From Bacilli bacterium (lineage in GTDB: Bacteria > Bacillota_I > Bacilli_A > RF39 > UBA660): DNA of 54,968 nucleotides. The stretch covers positions 1 through 54,968 of the forward strand of contig JAZSKU010000047.1 of NCBI GenBank assembly GCA_045535005.1, given 5' to 3'. The position numbers and the translations under genes are program-made. Position 1 is the stretch's first letter. Every line of letters begins with the position of its first letter. Under the pieces are notes generated by a model, which was not told the DNA's origin, did no database searches, and worked only from the letters and a program-made list of their open reading frames with translations. Positions 48,500-54,968 of this stretch are shown in pieces.

Positions 48500-48531
48500 A
48501 AAAGAGTTAACTATTTTGTTAACTCTTTATA
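48498..48531. terminator. Bidirectional terminator between paralog 3 and murC
   Basis: AAAGAGTTAAC/GTTAACTCTTT 11-bp stem. Overlaps the murC 3' end. Confidence 0.7.
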
Positions 48532-49806
48532 TTTGTTTGCTAAAACATATATATCTTTACTACTCATGAATAGAAGTACTGCGTTTTCATATTGTAATAG
48601 TTTTTCTGGTTCATCCATACCAATGTGTTCTCCATTAGTTAGATGATTTATAATCCATGATGCATCTACATCTTCATAACCAACTTCAATTCTATCTTCA
48701 CCGATATCTAATACATAAGCTTTATCTGCTAAGTTTAGAGCATCAGCAAATTCTTTATAGAAGTATTTAACTCTTGATTTAGTATGTGCTTTAAATAAAG
48801 CAATTACTTTTCTATCAGGATATTTCTTTTTAGCAGCTTCAATTGTTACTTTTACTTCTGTTGGGTGATGAGCATAGTCATCAATTAGAATATTTGTTTT
48901 GAATTTTTCTTCGATGAATCTTCTTTTTGCATGTTCTATTTTAGTTATTTGAGTTTTTAATTCTTCTTTATCAATTCCTTCTAAGTAGCATACTGTAATA
49001 ACTGCTAAAACATTTAATAATAAGTGATCTCCTACAAAAGGGAATGTATAAGTATCATAATATTCTCCTTTGATATATACATCTGCGATTGTTTCTTCAC
49101 CATTTAACTTAACATTTTTAATAACTACATCATTATTATCATTAAATCCATAATACATTAATTCTTTATCAGTAGTTATTTTTCTACAGTTTTCATCATC
49201 ACCACACATAATAACTGCTTTTCTAGTTCTATTTACGTAATCTTGATAAGCATCCATTATATCATCTAAATCTTTATAATAGTCAGTGTGATCTAATTCT
49301 ATATTAGTTACTACTGCATAATATGGACTGTATGCTAAGAAGTGACGTTTAAATTCGCATGCTTCTAAGGCGAAATAATCATTTCCTTTTTTAGCGTATC
49401 CAGTTCCATCTCCGATAAGATAATTAACTCCGATATTTTGTAAAACTTTACTCATCATAGTTGTAGTAGTAGTTTTACCATGACAACCTGAAATTCCAAT
49501 TAATTTTGTTTCATTTGTTATTTCAGCTATCATTTCTTGATAAGTATATATTTTAAGTCCAAGTTCTTTAGCTCTTTTAACTTCTTCGTGTTCATCATTA
49601 AATGCATTTCCTTGAACTACGATCATACCTTCTTTAATGTTATCTTTATTAAATGTTGTAAATTCTATTCCTTTTTCTACTAATCCTATTTCAGTAAAGA
49701 AGTGGTCTGGTTTATCACTACCAGTTACTTTATATCCTAAATCATGCATAATTTGAGCTAGTGAACTCATACCGCTTCCTTTAATTCCTATAAAATAATA
49801 AATCAT
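48511..49806 (-). CDS. murC: UDP-N-acetylmuramate--L-alanine ligase
   Basis: IYYFIGIKGSGMSSLAQIM, GISGCHGKTTTTTM P-loop, DDYAHHPTE. Confidence 0.95.
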   Translation of the reverse strand: MIYYFIGIKGSGMSSLAQIMHDLGYKVTGSDKPDHFFTEIGLVEKGIEFTTFNKDNIKEGMIVVQGNAFNDEHEEVKRAKELGLKIYTYQEMIAEITNETKLIGISGCHGKTTTTTMMSKVLQNIGVNYLIGDGTGYAKKGNDYFALEACEFKRHFLAYSPYYAVVTNIELDHTDYYKDLDDIMDAYQDYVNRTRKAVIMCGDDENCRKITTDKELMYYGFNDNNDVVIKNVKLNGEETIADVYIKGEYYDTYTFPFVGDHLLLNVLAVITVCYLEGIDKEELKTQITKIEHAKRRFIEEKFKTNILIDDYAHHPTEVKVTIEAAKKKYPDRKVIALFKAHTKSRVKYFYKEFADALNLADKAYVLDIGEDRIEVGYEDVDASWIINHLTNGEHIGMDEPEKLLQYENAVLLFMSSKDIYVLANKYKELTK

Positions 49807-49927: not shown

Positions 49928-50323
49928 GTGAAAAGTGATAGTATATTTGTTGCTGATATTAAAAAATGTACTTCTTATGATACAACTAATTTATTTTGTT
50001 GTGAGGAATATATAAATGGTGAGTTAGTTGGTAGAAGTGGTTTTGGATATATTACTCATGAAGGTGAAGTAATTAAGAAAGATGCTATATTAATTAATTT
50101 AAAGAATGGCGGTTATGTAGATATTGATTCTTTAAATGGAGTTGTTGATGTTGTTAAAACATTAAAAGATATGAGAAGACGTGGATTTGTTACTGGTGGT
50201 AAGATTATGAGTACTTCTCCATCTAGAGTAGGTAGTGTATATGTATGTACTGATTCATTAAGACCATATAATTCTAAAGAAAAAGAAGTATCTATATTAC
50301 AACTTAAAAGAGATAGAAAGTAA
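49928..50323 (+). CDS. Hypothetical protein (131 aa)
   Basis: TGATATAAT extended -10. GAGAGGGTGA RBS before a GTG start. A terminator follows. Confidence 0.5.
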   Translation: MKSDSIFVADIKKCTSYDTTNLFCCEEYINGELVGRSGFGYITHEGEVIKKDAILINLKNGGYVDIDSLNGVVDVVKTLKDMRRRGFVTGGKIMSTSPSRVGSVYVCTDSLRPYNSKEKEVSILQLKRDRK

Positions 50324-50350
50324 AAAGACTAATCTTCATTAGTCTTTTTT
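50322..50350. terminator. Bidirectional terminator
   Basis: AGACTAAT/ATTAGTCT stem flanked by A- and T-runs. Confidence 0.7.
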
Positions 50351-50985
50351 CTTAGGCTTAAAATACTATTTTGTTTAGCATAGTTAGATATAGCAGTGAA
50401 GTTTTCATCATATCCATATCTATTTTGACCAAATTGTAACCACATACCACTCCAAGTTCCTTCAGTTTGTAGTAATTTTTGTACTTTCGAATCCATGAAT
50501 GTAGTATTTCCATCTTGTTTATTTAAATCAACACAATGTTCTTCATCATATATTTTACTTTGTAAGTCACATTCTAATTTATCACAGTAGAATGCAAATT
50601 TAGCTTCCATTGTTTCTTTAGCATCAAATTCTAATATAAGAGCTTTTATTTCTTCTTTAGAAAGTAGTCCTGATAATACTTCTTCTATAGCTTCGTGTCC
50701 CATTCTTTCTTTAGTTTCTTTATCTATTTGGAATAGAGTTAAGTCTCCGATTAGTATTTCTTCTAATTCATGTACTGCAAGCATAAATAATACTTTTCTA
50801 GTATCTATTTCATATTTATATTCACTTTGCATTGCAATTGCTAGCATTTGAACTCCAAATATATGTTCTGCAACACTTTCTAATCTCTCTCTTTGAACTC
50901 TCCAGTCTTTCCAACCAGTTCTAATAACATCTTTTAATTTATTACATAATACATAATATCTAATTACATTTTCTTCTCTTGACAT
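50329..50985 (-). CDS. HD-domain phosphohydrolase (YfbR-like 5'-nucleotidase type)
   Basis: ESVAEHIFGV and AVHELEEILIGDL (H...HD...D pattern). Confidence 0.7.
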   Translation of the reverse strand: MSREENVIRYYVLCNKLKDVIRTGWKDWRVQRERLESVAEHIFGVQMLAIAMQSEYKYEIDTRKVLFMLAVHELEEILIGDLTLFQIDKETKERMGHEAIEEVLSGLLSKEEIKALILEFDAKETMEAKFAFYCDKLECDLQSKIYDEEHCVDLNKQDGNTTFMDSKVQKLLQTEGTWSGMWLQFGQNRYGYDENFTAISNYAKQNSILSLRKKTNED

Positions 50986-51097
50986 AATATCTCCTTAAAT
51001 TTAGTTTTTATTATAACATATAATTATATGATTTAAAGTATTAATTGATTAATTTAATGTTTTATGGTATAATATGCACGAATTTAAGGGGTGTAAT

Positions 51098-51907
51098 ATG
51101 AGTAATATAAGGAAGAGTGATATAGATTTTAGTAGACTTACTTTATTAAGTAATGAGGGTTCTAATGGTACTATATATACTGATGGAGTAACTTGTTATA
51201 AATTACTTGATAAAATGTATCCAGATGAAGTAACTGACTTATATTATAAGTTATGTGAAATGGAAGGTATTAATATAGATGGTGTTATATTACCAGAAGA
51301 CTTTATTATTGCTGATAATAGATTTGTTGGATACTCAATGCCTTTTTTTAAGAATTCTATGTCTATAAGTGATAAATATTTTACTAGATATTTAGATACT
51401 GGTAGTTTATTTAGTGATTTAAATAAAGCATCTTCAATACTTAGAAAGATTCATGAAAGTGGTATTGTATGCCAAGATATTAGTTTTGAAAATATATTAG
51501 TTGATGTTAATGGAAATGTTATGTTTTGTGATATGGATGCTTGTAAATATGATCATCATAATAGTCAATATATTTCATATATGTTAAAAAGATTTATGTG
51601 TGACTATAGAAGACAAGCGTTTATTCCAAACTCTAATACTGATAGAATATCTATGATGATATCAATGTATTATTTAATATTTGCTCTTGAAATACAAAAA
51701 GTTTCTAGAAAAAGCTTCTTATCTATGTCTGATAAATTAGATACTATATATGATTCAGTAGGTATTGCTAATAGATTAATTGATAGAAATAATAAAATGG
51801 GTTATATACCTTATTTAGATGAAATTATATCTTTAAATGATGATGTTATTATAGATAGATGTGAAGAAAAACAAAAAGAATTTAGAAGAAGATTAATATT
51901 AAAATAA
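51098..51907 (+). CDS. Protein-kinase-like fold protein (atypical), paralog of the ORF at 18575
   Basis: NEGSNGTIY Gly-loop-like, CYKLLDK, GIVCQDISFENILV catalytic-loop-like, FCDMD (DFG-like). Start set to the ATG at 51098 after AAGGGG. Confidence 0.5.
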   Translation: MSNIRKSDIDFSRLTLLSNEGSNGTIYTDGVTCYKLLDKMYPDEVTDLYYKLCEMEGINIDGVILPEDFIIADNRFVGYSMPFFKNSMSISDKYFTRYLDTGSLFSDLNKASSILRKIHESGIVCQDISFENILVDVNGNVMFCDMDACKYDHHNSQYISYMLKRFMCDYRRQAFIPNSNTDRISMMISMYYLIFALEIQKVSRKSFLSMSDKLDTIYDSVGIANRLIDRNNKMGYIPYLDEIISLNDDVIIDRCEEKQKEFRRRLILK

Positions 51908-51933
51908 AAAAGAGTTTAATAAACTCTTTTTTT
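51906..51933 (+). terminator. Rho-independent terminator
   Basis: AGAGTTT/AAACTCT stem plus a 7-T run. Confidence 0.7.
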
Positions 51934-51966
51934 ATGTTATATTTTATATGATAGGGAAGTGTGAAT

Positions 51967-52941
51967 ATGAAATTGGAAGATAGAATATTAGAAGAAAATA
52001 ATGGAGATGTATTTTTTACTAAAGCAATATATGATTATTTTGTAAGAGACTTAAATATGAGTGAAAGTGATGCTTTACCTTTATTTGATAAAGTATCTAG
52101 TGATAAATTAATATATAATGATTTTAGTAAATATGTTATTCAAAATACATTTGATTTTGATACTACTTTAAGTATTAACGGAGTAACTGCTAAAATGATT
52201 CATGAAGAGAATCCTGATTTATGTGCTCTTGATGTATATTTAAAATTGATTGATATGAATGATAAAGCAAATGATAGTATTGATTTAGATGCTGTTATTA
52301 ATGATGTGTTTGAAAAAATACTTAATATGGAAGAAGAAGAAACTACTTGTATTAGTGATGAAGTAGGTACTAATCTAAGTGATAAAGAATTATTTTATGT
52401 TTATAATGGAGTAGTAAATAAGCTTAAAAAAGAGCAAGTGTTTTTAGATTTTATTGATAAAGGTGTTGCTGGTCTTCCATTTAATATTCATTTTAAAAGA
52501 GGGACTTTTTTAACTATTAAATTAAGTGAAAAAAGATATAATGGTAAATATGGTAAAGGAAGTATATTTTCTAATATAATTGACTTTAATTTATGTGGTA
52601 ATAATGCATGTGTATCTTCATTTATGGAAGTATGTGTTGATCCTACTATTAAAGAAAGAGGTAAACTTGGTATTTCTATTCCTTTTGTTATGACAGAAGA
52701 TGAGTTAAAGAATTTAAATGATTGTTTAGCTAAAGTATCTACAATAAATAATATAGCTGAAGAAGAATATATTAAGTTATCTATTCCTGAAAAATTAAGA
52801 TATGTTGACTTATATATTAATTCTAAACATTTTTATATTAATTCTTTAGATAGTATTTTATTTGAAATAGCTACATGTATTAAATCTGATATAGTTACTA
52901 AAACTAATACAGAAGCTTATAAAGATTTATTTATGAAATAG
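51967..52941 (+). CDS. Hypothetical protein (324 aa)
   Basis: AGGGAAG RBS. No motif recognised. Confidence 0.5.
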   Translation: MKLEDRILEENNGDVFFTKAIYDYFVRDLNMSESDALPLFDKVSSDKLIYNDFSKYVIQNTFDFDTTLSINGVTAKMIHEENPDLCALDVYLKLIDMNDKANDSIDLDAVINDVFEKILNMEEEETTCISDEVGTNLSDKELFYVYNGVVNKLKKEQVFLDFIDKGVAGLPFNIHFKRGTFLTIKLSEKRYNGKYGKGSIFSNIIDFNLCGNNACVSSFMEVCVDPTIKERGKLGISIPFVMTEDELKNLNDCLAKVSTINNIAEEEYIKLSIPEKLRYVDLYINSKHFYINSLDSILFEIATCIKSDIVTKTNTEAYKDLFMK

Positions 52942-52963
52942 ATTATGTTATTTAGGTGAACCT

Positions 52964-53488
52964 ATGGCTACATATGAATATAATGATTTATTTTTAAAGT
53001 GTCAGAATACTGGTAAATATCACGTGTTTACTTTTGATATTGTTGGATCTAGAAATATGGATAAAAGGACTAGGTTAGATGCGCATTATAAATCTATTAA
53101 GATGATCACTATGATTTATGATGAGATAAGAAGAATAGAGGATATTACTTCTAAAAAGATACTTGTATTTGAAGATGATTTTGTTCATATGGATGAAAAA
53201 TATGAAGGCTTTGGATTTAAAAAAGAACCATTTATATTTGGTGATATGGTTGGGTTTACCGTATATAGAGATTCGATTGATAATGATACTGTTATTTCTA
53301 TATATAATGAAGTAAAAAGATTATTAAATATTAATTTTGATTTTCATGTTAATGATGGATATTATGAAACTAATAATTATGAAGAGGGTGGCACTTTATA
53401 TTTTAGAGGTTATGCTATAGATTTAATATCTAACTTACATAAGGAAGCAAATAAGTCACTTAGGATGCAATTAAAAAAACAATCATGA
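52964..53488 (+). CDS. Hypothetical protein with a nucleotidyl-cyclase/SatD-like motif pattern (174 aa)
   Basis: VFTFDIVGSRNM and FIFGDMVGFTVY resemble the two metal-Asp strands of the class III cyclase / SatD fold. AGGTGA RBS. A terminator follows. Confidence 0.45.
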   Translation: MATYEYNDLFLKCQNTGKYHVFTFDIVGSRNMDKRTRLDAHYKSIKMITMIYDEIRRIEDITSKKILVFEDDFVHMDEKYEGFGFKKEPFIFGDMVGFTVYRDSIDNDTVISIYNEVKRLLNINFDFHVNDGYYETNNYEEGGTLYFRGYAIDLISNLHKEANKSLRMQLKKQS

Positions 53489-53502
53489 ATTTGATTGTTT
53501 TT
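53474..53502 (+). terminator. Rho-independent terminator
   Basis: ACAATCA/TGATTGT stem plus a T-run. Confidence 0.7.
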
Positions 53503-53612
53503 ATGTGTTTTCAAATTTTACATATATTTTTGTTGTTAGAAATAAAATTATTCTTATAGGAATATTTTTATTTTGGTTGATAAATTTTATCTGATTATTG
53601 AATTATGGTAAT

Positions 53613-53641
53613 TTGTATTTATTTTTGTGTTTAATTATAAT
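53613..53641 (+). promoter_or_regulatory. Sigma-A promoter of mini-ORF 1
   Basis: TTGTAT, 17 nt, TATAAT. Confidence 0.6.
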
Positions 53642-53706
53642 TCTTTTGGAACGTTTATAAGTGTCTACCTATATTTCTTTTATAAAAAAAGAAAGGAGGT
53701 AATTTT

Positions 53707-53814
53707 ATGAATAATAAAGTATTTATTATCTTTCTTTTCAGGTATACTTTATTCATTCTAATAACATTTACTTTACTAGTAACTGAAATAAAAAAAGACA
53801 CTTACCATAGGTAA
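53707..53814 (+). CDS. 35-aa hydrophobic peptide, type I toxin-like (MNNKVFIIFLFRYTLFILITFTLLVTEIKKDTYHR)
   Basis: Strong RBS GAAAGGAGGTAATTTTATG. Single predicted TM helix with a charged C-terminal tail. Convergent antisense promoter and terminator. Confidence 0.55.
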   Translation: MNNKVFIIFLFRYTLFILITFTLLVTEIKKDTYHR

Positions 53815-53865
53815 ATGTCACCATAGATATAGGTGGACATTTACTTTCGAATAAACGTTCCACTT
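53790..53865 (-). ncRNA. Predicted cis-antisense sRNA 1 (candidate antitoxin), ~76 nt
   Basis: Minus-strand promoter TTGAAA (53900-53895), 17 nt, TGT-TATTAT (53877-53872). Hairpin GACATTTACC/GGTAAGTGTC followed by 7 U. Overlaps the last codons and 3' UTR of mini-ORF 1. Confidence 0.45.
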
Positions 53866-54024
53866 AAATAAATAATAACATAAATATTATTAAGTTTCAA
53901 TATTTTATAATTTTAAGTATTTTTAAATTTTACTTATGTTTATGTTTTTTAAAATATAAATTTTTCTATAGGAATAATTTCGTTTTGGTTGATAAATTTT
54001 ATCTGATTATTGAATTATGGTAAT

Positions 54025-54053
54025 TTGTATTTATTTTTGTATTTATTTATAAT
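54025..54053 (+). promoter_or_regulatory. Sigma-A promoter of mini-ORF 2
   Basis: TTGTAT, 17 nt, TATAAT. Confidence 0.6.
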
Positions 54054-54117
54054 TCTTTTGGAACGTTTATAAGTGTCTACCTATGTTTCTTTTATAAAAA
54101 AGAAAGGAGGTAATTTT

Positions 54118-54225
54118 ATGAATAATAAAGTATTTATTCTATGTATACTAAGATATACTTTATATATTCTTGTAACAACATCTATTCTTATTATAGAAAT
54201 TAAAAAAGACACTTACCGTAGGTAA
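54118..54225 (+). CDS. 35-aa hydrophobic peptide, type I toxin-like (MNNKVFILCILRYTLYILVTTSILIIEIKKDTYRR)
   Basis: Same RBS and architecture as mini-ORF 1. 23 of 35 residues are identical, and the differences cluster in the hydrophobic core. Confidence 0.55.
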   Translation: MNNKVFILCILRYTLYILVTTSILIIEIKKDTYRR

Positions 54226-54277
54226 ATGTCCAAACCAAATATAGGTGGACATTTACTTTCGAATAAACGTTCCACTT
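54202..54277 (-). ncRNA. Predicted cis-antisense sRNA 2 (candidate antitoxin), ~76 nt
   Basis: Minus-strand promoter TTGATA (54312-54307), 17 nt, TGT-TATTAT (54289-54284). Hairpin GACATTTACC/GGTAAGTGTC plus 6 U. Confidence 0.45.
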
Positions 54278-54312
54278 AAATAAATAATAACATAAATATT
54301 AGTTTATATCAA

Positions 54313-54343
54313 TAAAAAAAGAACCATAGGTTCTTATTTTTTT
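54313..54343. terminator. Bidirectional terminator (3' of tRNA-Leu on the minus strand, and 3' of repeat unit 2 on the plus strand)
   Basis: AGAACC/GGTTCT stem flanked by a 7-A run and a T-run. Confidence 0.7.
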
Positions 54344-54345
54344 AG

Positions 54346-54430
54346 TGGTGCAGGTGAAGGGACTTGAACCCCCAAGGATTGCTCCGCTAGATCCTAAGTC
54401 TAGTGCGTTTGCCAATTTCGCCACACCTGC
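54346..54430 (-). tRNA. tRNA-Leu (anticodon TAG)
   Basis: 85-nt cloverleaf. Acceptor GCAGGTG/CACCTGC. Anticodon stem CTAGA/TCTAG with loop CTTAGGA. Long variable arm. T-loop TTCAAGT. Encoded CCA. Confidence 0.85.
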
Positions 54431-54441
54431 ATTTTATTAAG

Positions 54442-54518
54442 TGGTGGACCTTGTAGGACTCGAACCTACAACCGCCCGGTTATGAGCCGGATGCTCTAAC
54501 CAATTGAGCTAAAGGTCC
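54442..54518 (-). tRNA. tRNA with a CAT anticodon (elongator Met or lysidine-dependent Ile2; not the initiator)
   Basis: 77-nt cloverleaf. Acceptor GGACCTT/AAGGTCC with a paired 1:72 position. D-arm GCTC/GAGC. Anticodon loop CTCATAA. T-arm GTAGG-TTCGAGT-CCTAC. Encoded CCA. The GGACCTTTAGCTCA start resembles Firmicute tRNA-Ile2 as I recall it. Confidence 0.85.
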
Positions 54519-54529
54519 ACTGCCTTTTA

Positions 54530-54558
54530 ATAATAACATAAAAAAAATGGCTTTTCAA
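54530..54558 (-). promoter_or_regulatory. Sigma-A promoter of the tRNA pair
   Basis: Minus strand: TTGAAA, 17 nt, (TGT)TATTAT. Confidence 0.6.
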
Positions 54559-54637
54559 TAATTTTTTTTAAAAATTGTTTAATTTATCTAAAAATGTGAT
54601 ATATTATATATATAAATAAAATAGGACAGGTGAAAAA

Positions 54638-54968
54638 ATGACAATATTTCAATATAAGAAACAAGTATTAGAGTTTATTTTATGTATTGTAGCGTTATTT
54701 GTTATTTTATTTTTGGTTAAAACTTTTGTTACTTTTGGTCGTACTAATGACTATAGAGTTATAAGTACTTCTAATATAACTTTTGAGGATGAAAAGACAA
54801 ATATTAATTTTGCTTATCCTAGATTTAAGAGTGATAAAATTAATAAAATAGTAACAGATTATGTATATGAATATGTATTAGAATTTAAAGAATTTGATAC
54901 TTTATCTAAGGTTCTTGATGCTTCTTATGAATTATATTATTTTGAAGGGTATGTTAATATTGTATTTA
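54638..54968 (+). CDS. Membrane-anchored protein, 3'-truncated by the window end (possibly a DUF4163/RsiV-PdaC-like N-terminal region)
   Basis: ATG at 54638 after AGGACAGGTGA. TM helix FILCIVALFVILFLV. Open frame to the window end. Confidence 0.5.
   Translation, partial: MTIFQYKKQVLEFILCIVALFVILFLVKTFVTFGRTNDYRVISTSNITFEDEKTNINFAYPRFKSDKINKIVTDYVYEYVLEFKEFDTLSKVLDASYELYYFEGYVNIVF

Follow-up and report, generated by a model that had tools for sequence, protein, structure and literature searches.

Candidate type I toxin-antitoxin-like modules with a closed toxin mRNA and a convergent antisense RNA in uncultured gut Bacilli

Introduction

In bsrG/SR4 of the SPbeta prophage of Bacillus subtilis, structure probing of bsrG mRNA placed nucleotides (nt) 1-35 in a helix, P1, with nt 232-262, and the Shine-Dalgarno (SD) sequence in a helix of 4 base pairs (bp) (PMC3834814). 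The antisense RNA SR4, which overlaps the 3' end of bsrG, makes contact with P1 along its 3' arm; binding of SR4 leaves nt 1-33 single-stranded and lengthens the SD helix from 4 to 8 bp (PMC3834814). Here, we analyzed contig JAZSKU010000047.1 of a Bacilli bacterium (assembly GCA_045535005.1; 54,968 nt, hereafter the window), which carries two tandem units of approximately 411 bp each at its right end. We consider it probable, from their sequences, that both units represent type I toxin-antitoxin-like modules on the plan of bsrG/SR4, each with a small hydrophobic candidate toxin, an mRNA closed by a P1-type helix, an SD sequence in a short helix, and a predicted convergent, 3'-overlapping antisense RNA that reaches the 3' arm of P1.

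As judged from the sequences, the likeness to TxpA/RatA and BsrG/SR4 is architectural and not one of homology. No similarity of the peptides or RNAs to the bsrG/SR4 system was detected with Pfam, NCBIfam, or Rfam. The predicted antisense RNA has about 76 nt and two stem-loops, those of relatives have 105-126 nt and three, and SR4 has about 180 nt and four. In addition, P1 of bsrG is followed by a terminator of its own, SL4, whereas unit 1 has none and a U-run directly follows the 3' arm of P1 in relatives. Finally, bsrG belongs to a prophage, whereas the loci described here are chromosomal and occur in uncultured gut Bacilli/Mycoplasmatota.

The units also share with txpA/RatA, bsrE/SR5, yonT/SR6, and sprG/SprF a convergent antisense RNA over the toxin 3' end and a double-stranded SD sequence. 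TxpA consists of 59 amino acids (aa), and the peptides of the present family are much shorter; no match in Rfam, Pfam, or NCBIfam pointed to homology with RatA or TxpA. In txpA/RatA-type systems, the SD sequence lies in a double-stranded region and the antitoxin is believed to induce decay by RNase III; RatA binding leaves the txpA SD helix unaltered (PMC3834814). An initial annotation of the window had compared the units with 3'-overlapping type I systems; the comparison holds for the architecture, BsrG/SR4 being apt since its probed P1 is opened by SR4 (PMC3834814), and fails for homology.

The par system (fst RNA I/RNA II) of Enterococcus faecalis pAD1 likewise has convergent RNAs, an intramolecularly sequestered SD sequence, and a hydrophobic toxin of about 30 aa. 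Direct repeats in par make the two RNAs complementary at their 5' ends, and both use a shared bidirectional terminator (PMC3834814; PMC8594479). In the present units, by contrast, the repeats are inverted, so that the 5' part of the antisense RNA resembles the 5' end of the mRNA and does not complement it; the antisense terminator is one-directional, and no Fst match was found in Pfam. SD/anti-SD elements, terminators, and 5'-3' interactions are described as general determinants of type I toxin mRNAs in the T1TAdb paper (PMC8594479). As in hok/sok and aapA1/IsoA1, where the full-length toxin mRNA is locked by 5'-3' end pairing and has SD/anti-SD elements (PMC8594479), the ends of the mRNA are predicted to pair here; the antisense RNAs of those systems, however, target the 5' region, and their mRNAs must be processed at the 3' end to become active, whereas the antisense RNA here covers the 3' arm. 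Of the hok-type comparison drawn in the initial annotation, only the idea of a 5'-3' lock is retained.

Predicted transcripts of the two units

The features of unit 1 are as follows.
53613..53641, + strand: sense promoter TTGTAT-17-TATAAT, read from the sequence, with a perfect TATAAT at 53636-41
53648..53866, + strand: predicted toxin mRNA; 5' end 7 nt past the -10 hexamer, 3' end uncertain
53648..53676, + strand: 5' arm of P1, from folding, repeat search, and duplex energy
53666..53681, + strand: anti-SD element UACCU...UUUCUUUU, which pairs with the P1 3' arm or with the SD sequence, from base-pair probabilities
53692..53699, + strand: SD sequence AAAGGAGG, 7 nt ahead of the ATG
53707..53814, + strand: open reading frame (ORF) for a hydrophobic peptide of 35 aa, MNNKVFIIFLFRYTLFILITFTLLVTEIKKDTYHR, from the ORF list
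53825..53861, + strand: 3' arm of P1 (inner part 53825-43, 8-nt bulge 53844-51, outer part 53852-61)
53872..53900, - strand: antisense promoter TTGAAA-17-TGtTATTAT, called by the scan
53790..53865, - strand: predicted antisense (antitoxin) RNA of about 76 nt, from scan and folding
53833..53863, - strand: antisense stem-loop SL1, whose loop is complementary to the P1 bulge
53790..53819, - strand: antisense terminator, hairpin 53819..53797 followed by U7

Those of unit 2 are as follows.
54025..54053, + strand: sense promoter TTGTAT-17-TATAAT
54060..54278, + strand: predicted toxin mRNA, which may extend to the terminator at 54319-54335
54118..54225, + strand: ORF for a peptide of 35 aa, MNNKVFILCILRYTLYILVTTSILIIEIKKDTYRR, with the SD sequence AAAGGAGG at 54103-54110, 7 nt before the ATG
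54237..54273, + strand: 3' arm of P1
54284..54312, - strand: antisense promoter TTGATA-17-TGtTATTAT, called by the scan
54200..54277, - strand: predicted antisense RNA, with its terminator hairpin at 54231..54207

All sequence features noted in the initial annotation were recovered in place and above chance, and unit 2 was found to contain the same parts as unit 1, as that annotation had proposed. The untranslated regions (UTRs) of the two units are approximately 98-100% identical, with codons 8-26 just 58% identical; this segment contains 12 non-synonymous and 4 synonymous codon changes, and all amino-acid replacements are membrane-compatible in character.

Both units encode a small (<60 aa) hydrophobic peptide of the membrane type with an SD sequence of its own. 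The best 15-aa hydropathy windows of these peptides were 2.3-2.6. The peptides matched no family of Pfam or NCBIfam at E <= 10, and no Rfam family scored above chance for the window or for four relatives. The sense -10 hexamer of unit 1 aligned with the TATAAT of relatives, in which the promoter scan does call sense promoters; the scan did not call it in the window because its -35 hexamer matches at only three of six positions.

On the opposite strand, near-consensus promoters had been proposed downstream of both ORFs, and the scan called both, at 53900..53872 and 54312..54284, each with 10/12 matches plus the TG extension. Within 53400-54968, the only other site with 10/12 matches was the tRNA promoter at 54558..54530. 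This promoter of the tRNA-Met/tRNA-Leu pair (54530-54558, minus strand, TTGAAA-17-TGtTATTAT) has the same extended -10 block as the two antisense promoters, as had been noted before. Terminator-like sites were clearly enriched (4 found, 0.2 expected from shuffles), and they included minus-strand terminators at 53819..53797 and 54231..54207, where hairpins followed by six to seven U residues had been pointed out. The terminator hairpin of unit 1 was more stable on the minus strand (-11.0 kcal/mol) than on the plus strand (-7.1 kcal/mol), and this post-stop hairpin is followed by a U-run on the minus strand only.

Assuming transcription starts about 7 nt past the -10 hexamers, the antisense RNAs would extend from 53865 to 53790 and from 54277 to 54200. 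The footprint comprises codons 29-35 and the 3' UTR, in agreement with the antisense RNA of about 76 nt predicted initially. The predicted fold of the unit 1 antisense RNA (-24.1 kcal/mol, z = -4.2) has SL1 at the 5' end, joined to the terminator by a single-stranded linker. These sequence signals point to an antisense RNA gene with a promoter and terminator of its own, the product of which is complementary to the toxin mRNA.

Predicted pairing of the mRNA ends and occlusion of the SD sequence

A repeat search in unit 1 identified a perfect 12-nt inverted pair (53647-58 / 53851-62) and a 17-nt pair of 88% (53658-74 / 53827-43). Folding of the unit 1 mRNA with RNAfold paired nt 1-28 with nt 179-214, giving 28 long-range pairs in the minimum free energy (MFE) structure. 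The fold energy was -59.6 kcal/mol (z = -7.8), which none of 200 shuffled sequences equalled, and that of the duplex of the two arms was -36.7 kcal/mol (z = -8.3). End pairing had been described in the initial annotation as helices of 11, 4, and 10 bp; the complementarity stands, and the register was revised to 10 bp in the outer part, an 8-nt 3' bulge (CUUUCGAA), and 19 bp in the inner part with three G-U pairs. Thus P1 joins the 5' end to the pre-terminator region and the predicted antisense RNA pairs with its 3' arm, as in bsrG/SR4.

The MFE structure of the unit 1 mRNA was the long helix, and that of unit 2 consisted of the pairings AAGUGUCU:AGACACUU and GUAAAUGUCC:GGACAUUUAC, which are formed from the same elements. 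The two units therefore fold differently from shared parts, and the mutually exclusive hairpins suggested earlier are confirmed.

Sequestration of the SD sequence by an upstream element had also been suggested. Base-pair probabilities agreed with this: the pairing of ACCU (53667-70) with the SD sequence had a probability of 0.38 in the free unit 1 mRNA, 0.95-0.98 once the antisense footprint was blocked, and 0.93 in unit 2. In free-energy models the SD sequence was paired in every locus modelled, with probabilities of 0.8-0.98 in unit 2, in footprint-blocked unit 1, and in two relatives, L077 and L035 (see below). In the window and the L077 group it paired with the upstream ACCU-type anti-SD element, and in L035 with the coding region. 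The ACCU motif is kept in relatives (alignment helix columns 32-38/54-60). An alternative partner of the anti-SD element is GGU(A), located where the 3' arm of P1 has its inner end, and a three-way competition results. Blocking the footprint shifted the balance at the SD sequence markedly in unit 1 only; we therefore rejected the idea that the antisense RNA is a general open-to-closed switch for the SD sequence. The mRNA nevertheless combines SD/anti-SD and 5'-3' interactions, that is, structures predicted to block its translation.

Relatives of the units

Members of the family were difficult to find by sequence. Exact and degenerate DNA patterns from the window matched nothing in viral contigs, save one chance phage match present five times, and the terminator pattern had no match in genome contigs. 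A metagenome scan with a pattern of the SD sequence, the EIKK codons, and GTTCCACTT gave 13 matches, all due to chance. Searches with the window peptides in protein sets of 5.8 billion and 1.84 billion sequences yielded nothing relevant, and exact look-up of these peptides and of the upstream 174-aa protein gave none. No family member was found in viral collections with patterns, nor in plasmid and phage collections with blastn.

Searching 80 loci around the Mur-ligase gene of related genomes with the peptide (tblastn) gave one weak match, L035, which on inspection had the same layout. A custom scan of the collected loci, which looked for short ORFs of hydrophobic peptides preceded by an SD sequence and bordered by strongly pairing 5' and 3' flanks, ranked the window units and L035 top and added L032, L041, and L050. 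Iteration with nhmmer added L077 (full) and two partial matches (L033 7471-7656 and L032 11964-12081). A peptide profile search of public assemblies matched annotated ORFs and led to L112/L113, L114-L117, L118, L120, and the truncated L119. In total, 11 full loci were obtained including the two window units; L035, L077, L032/L041, and L050 came from genome contigs and L112/L113, L114-L117, L118, and L120 from metagenome assemblies. The nine further full loci represent about six distinct sequence types and, together with two antisense-only remnants, come from uncultured gut Bacilli/Mycoplasmatota.

The intact peptides of the relatives are hydrophobic and 27-35 aa long (MSKKDFLIFSLIIIILLLIALLFVILK). 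In the deposited proteins P0123-P0127, gene callers had run the toxin ORFs N-terminally through the 5' UTR (e.g., ...GTFNKLGATF...MSKKDF...); these "proteins" of 51-76 aa are hence artefacts around a 27-aa peptide. L077 (14727-15059, minus strand) is the positional counterpart of the window locus, beside the same tRNA-Met/tRNA-Leu(tag) pair, and the module is convergent with a tRNA gene in the window, L077, and L118. The member L112/L113 (2012-2334, two JGI metagenome contigs) occupies the short interval that separates the convergent-facing genes gyrA and gyrB, where an accessory module would not usually be expected.

Conservation, co-variation and strand bias

The same 5'-to-3' layout was observed in all lineages: a sense TATAAT, the 5' arm, an anti-SD hairpin with the SD sequence, an ORF for a hydrophobic peptide of 22-35 aa, a post-stop hairpin after an A-run, a linker often containing AAACCAA, the 3' arm with a bulge of 7-9 nt, and the convergent -10 and -35 hexamers. 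The convergent promoter was at the same position in every full locus reaching that far. The scan called it in L032 and its remnant (TTGACA-17-TACAAT, 11/12), L114 and L118 (10/12 plus TG), and L112 (9/12), and called antisense-strand terminators in L035, L077, and L114. The linker motif AAACCAA, which reads UUGGUUU on the antisense RNA and falls in the single-stranded stretch separating the antisense terminator from the 3' arm of P1, was seen in unit 2 (54232-54238), L035, L050, and L120 and approximately in L077, and is missing from unit 1.

Ten of the eleven sense RNAs formed 17-32 long-range 5'-3' pairs, L120 formed 14, and the fold z scores ranged from -4.6 to -10. The P1 arms of the relatives differ in sequence and keep complementarity to their own partner. 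Constructs of 5' arm, GAAA, and 3' arm from all lineages were submitted to RNAalifold, and the arms proved too divergent for MAFFT; energies of cognate and non-cognate duplexes were therefore used. Cognate arms gave -31 to -38 kcal/mol in a six-locus matrix and -25.3 (L120) to -38.3 kcal/mol over the eleven loci, against -10 to -19 kcal/mol for clearly different arms in the matrix. Good cross-pairing was confined to the related pairs L077/L035 (-27 to -29 kcal/mol) and L032/L041.

Co-variation of the helices across homologous loci had been proposed as a check, and its outcome was favourable. From a structure-blind MAFFT alignment of six relatives, RNAalifold recovered the outer and inner parts of P1, the anti-SD:SD hairpin, and the post-stop hairpin. 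In this alignment, 91% of the cells were paired (87% in shuffles, 35-45% when the partners were slid). Pairs changed on both sides numbered 7, compared with 2.2 +/- 1.3 in shuffles (0/500), and the covariation score was 0.193, compared with 0.115 in shuffles (0/500) and at most 0.089 with slid partners. One position of P1 showed the series U-A, U-G, and C-G. Hence, the arms co-vary and the anti-SD hairpin is conserved.

The hairpins of the 3' region were biased toward the antisense strand. For SL1, the antisense strand gave -8.4 to -13.9 kcal/mol, compared with -1.8 to -10.4 kcal/mol for the sense strand, and the antisense form was favoured in six of six lineages; in all six, two or three G-U pairs on the antisense strand correspond to C-A mismatches on the sense strand. 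The terminator hairpin was stronger on the antisense strand in five of seven cases. This bias argues that a minus-strand RNA exists and is under selection. The two remnants (L033 7471-7656 and L032 11964-12081) have kept the antisense promoter, a small 5' hairpin, an A-rich spacer, SL1, and the terminator, and the toxin promoter and ORF are gone; a complete module follows immediately downstream of the L032 remnant, which has an 11/12 promoter. The analysis thereby establishes the sequence elements, the extent to which they are conserved and co-vary, and the strand bias.

A model of control and its alternatives

Here, we propose the following model. A sigma-70-type promoter would drive an mRNA of about 220 nt for the 35-aa membrane peptide. 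Its first 29 nt or so would pair with the 3' UTR as P1, closing the whole mRNA into a compact, presumably stable and poorly translated form. The anti-SD element (ACCU...UUUCUUUU), which immediately follows the 5' arm of P1, would have two alternative partners, the SD sequence and the innermost stretch of the P1 3' arm. The convergent promoter would produce the antisense RNA of about 76 nt, whose complementarity to the last codons and the 3' UTR is complete and extends over the entire 3' arm of P1. Pairing may start at complementary sites that are single-stranded in both RNAs; the P1 bulge and SL1 loop are such sites in unit 1, L077, L035, and L032, as are parts of the linker, and in the folding models both are likely nucleation sites. 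The antisense RNA would then invade the P1 3' arm and expel the mRNA's own 5' arm, the freed anti-SD element would close on the SD sequence, and the long sense-antisense duplex would become a substrate for a double-strand-specific RNase and be degraded. We infer the transcription of both RNAs, the order of the pairing events, the involvement of an RNase, and the toxicity of the peptide.

How the toxin mRNA ends is a separate matter. An end at the local 3' hairpin was rejected, because the sense-strand form of this hairpin has little stability (five of six lineages, -1.8 to -4.9 kcal/mol). In each of the five relatives examined, the P1 3' arm ran straight into a U-run, and P1 itself might conceivably be the intrinsic terminator, a suggestion we make tentatively and hold to be rather doubtful. 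If so, release and locking of the toxin mRNA would be one event requiring that the 5' end be free; the antisense RNA, with a copy of the mRNA 5' end as its 5' domain, would compete for the same partner; and the antisense-only remnants would act in trans.

Several observations weigh against the toxin-antitoxin interpretation. The window peptides match no known toxin family. In the L077 ORF, codon 7, which is Leu in intact relatives, is an in-frame TAA. In L032 (12226-12330) and L041 (11560-11665), the hydrophobic frame (ELI[VI]AFAMIVFYTIIVLKNKN) is open only from a TTG; an overlapping ATG frame behind a strong SD sequence would give a Cys-rich product of 28-29 aa. Three substitutions between L032 and L041 are conservative or silent in the hydrophobic frame and not in the ATG frame, and the overlap reflects either a frameshifted pseudogene or a leader-ORF arrangement. 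The outer P1 helix is degraded in L120. The scan found no plus-strand terminator after 53861, that is, past the P1 3' arm of unit 1. Unit 2, L077, and L035 have a closed SD sequence even when the antisense RNA is absent, and promoter-like sites in the region are about as frequent as expected for DNA of 26% GC (15 found, 12.9 expected). Moreover, the covariation set comprises few sequences, and a single alignment supplied both the structure and the pair counts, so that it serves as supporting evidence and not as proof.

The lack of a matching toxin family, together with core chromosomal contexts such as the spacer between gyrA and gyrB in L112 and the positions beside tRNA genes, would suit an ordinary gene for a small, non-toxic membrane protein whose level is tuned by a cis-antisense regulator, with no toxin-antitoxin pair. 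However, tandem duplication, constitutive occlusion of the SD sequence, a locked mRNA, disrupted ORFs in some lineages, and antisense-only remnants are all typical of type I systems, and the layout is close to that of bsrG/SR4. As regards toxicity of the peptide, the disrupted ORFs (L077 and L032/L041) and the remnants are the sole indirect hints. We consider this explanation unlikely.

Still less probable, in our estimate, is that no antisense RNA exists, the minus-strand promoter matches being chance products of AT-rich DNA and the hairpins serving the stability or termination of the sense transcript. Such a view would accommodate the absence of an overall enrichment of promoter-like sites and a U-run abutting the P1 3' arm in relatives that could terminate the sense RNA. 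Nevertheless, the -35/-10 pair holds its position in all lineages while the surrounding sequence changes, the U-run of the post-stop hairpin is on the minus strand only, the G-U/C-A asymmetry favours that strand, and the remnants retain exactly the antisense unit.

A miniature inverted-repeat mobile element with the perfect 12-bp inverted repeat TGGAACGTTTAT/ATAAACGTTCCA as its termini, suggested by this repeat, which is present twice and has its arms 192 nt apart, is highly improbable and was rejected, since the window has only two copies, in tandem, with no dispersed near-identical ones elsewhere in its 55 kb, the repeat unit of about 411 bp reaches beyond the inverted repeats, the arms of relatives diverge between lineages while staying complementary and keeping their position relative to the -10 hexamer, SD sequence, and ORF, and plasmid and phage collections gave no match.

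We thus favour type I toxin-antitoxin-like modules, and regard the loci as a credible family of this known kind that is in no catalogue, with its transcription and toxicity as predictions. In a full-text literature search, none of the papers listed combined type I toxin-antitoxin with RF39, Mollicutes, Acholeplasma, or Erysipelotrichaceae. The candidate family would add a type I toxin-antitoxin-like group in uncultured, small-genome gut Bacilli/Mycoplasmatota outside the models of Pfam, NCBIfam, and Rfam, and the design of P1, anti-SD element, and 3' antisense RNA known from bsrG/SR4 appears to recur here in unrelated sequences. The 11 full loci, two remnants, conserved motifs, and searchable patterns should suffice for a covariance model and for testing strand displacement as an antitoxin mechanism. 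Such loci break assemblies, as in a public contig (L099) that ends inside the repeat, and escape gene callers.

Chromosomal surroundings

The window is chromosomal with 26% GC; its GC skew is positive throughout, and nearly all genes are on the plus strand. In 1-50000, each 5-kb bin had a skew of 0.20-0.36 and nearly all long ORFs were on the plus strand, consistent with a leading-strand segment. The closest relatives of the Mur-ligase gene (48511-49806) showed 77-78% aa identity and came from metagenome-assembled genomes of uncultured Bacilli, Tenericutes, or Mycoplasmatota; more distant ones included Acholeplasma sp. CAG:878 and Candidatus Faecisoma. Such names stand for the RF39-like gut lineage.

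The tandem units are flanked by an ORF of 174 aa, to which no function was assigned, and by the minus-strand tRNA-Met/tRNA-Leu(tag) pair. One further feature was called by the terminator scan between unit 2 and tRNA-Leu.
54319..54335, both strands: bidirectional terminator

Between an HD-domain gene and the modules, 49928-53488 contains four ORFs without Pfam domains (131, 277, 326, and 174 aa). A tblastn search detected none of the four in the Mur-ligase-syntenic loci of 80 related genomes, and the segment looks like a variable island adjoining tRNA genes. The 174-aa protein belongs to a widespread uncharacterized family (218 matches at E <= 0.001; mostly 52-63% identical among the 120 matches listed). 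Its homologues sit in housekeeping contexts without linkage to the module.

The public contig L099 (Logan SRR24653818) was 98.9% identical to 51683-53600 of the window and stopped at 53600, inside the duplicated segment. Probably, the same species with the same repeat was present in the SRR24653818 sample, and the repeat broke the assembly.

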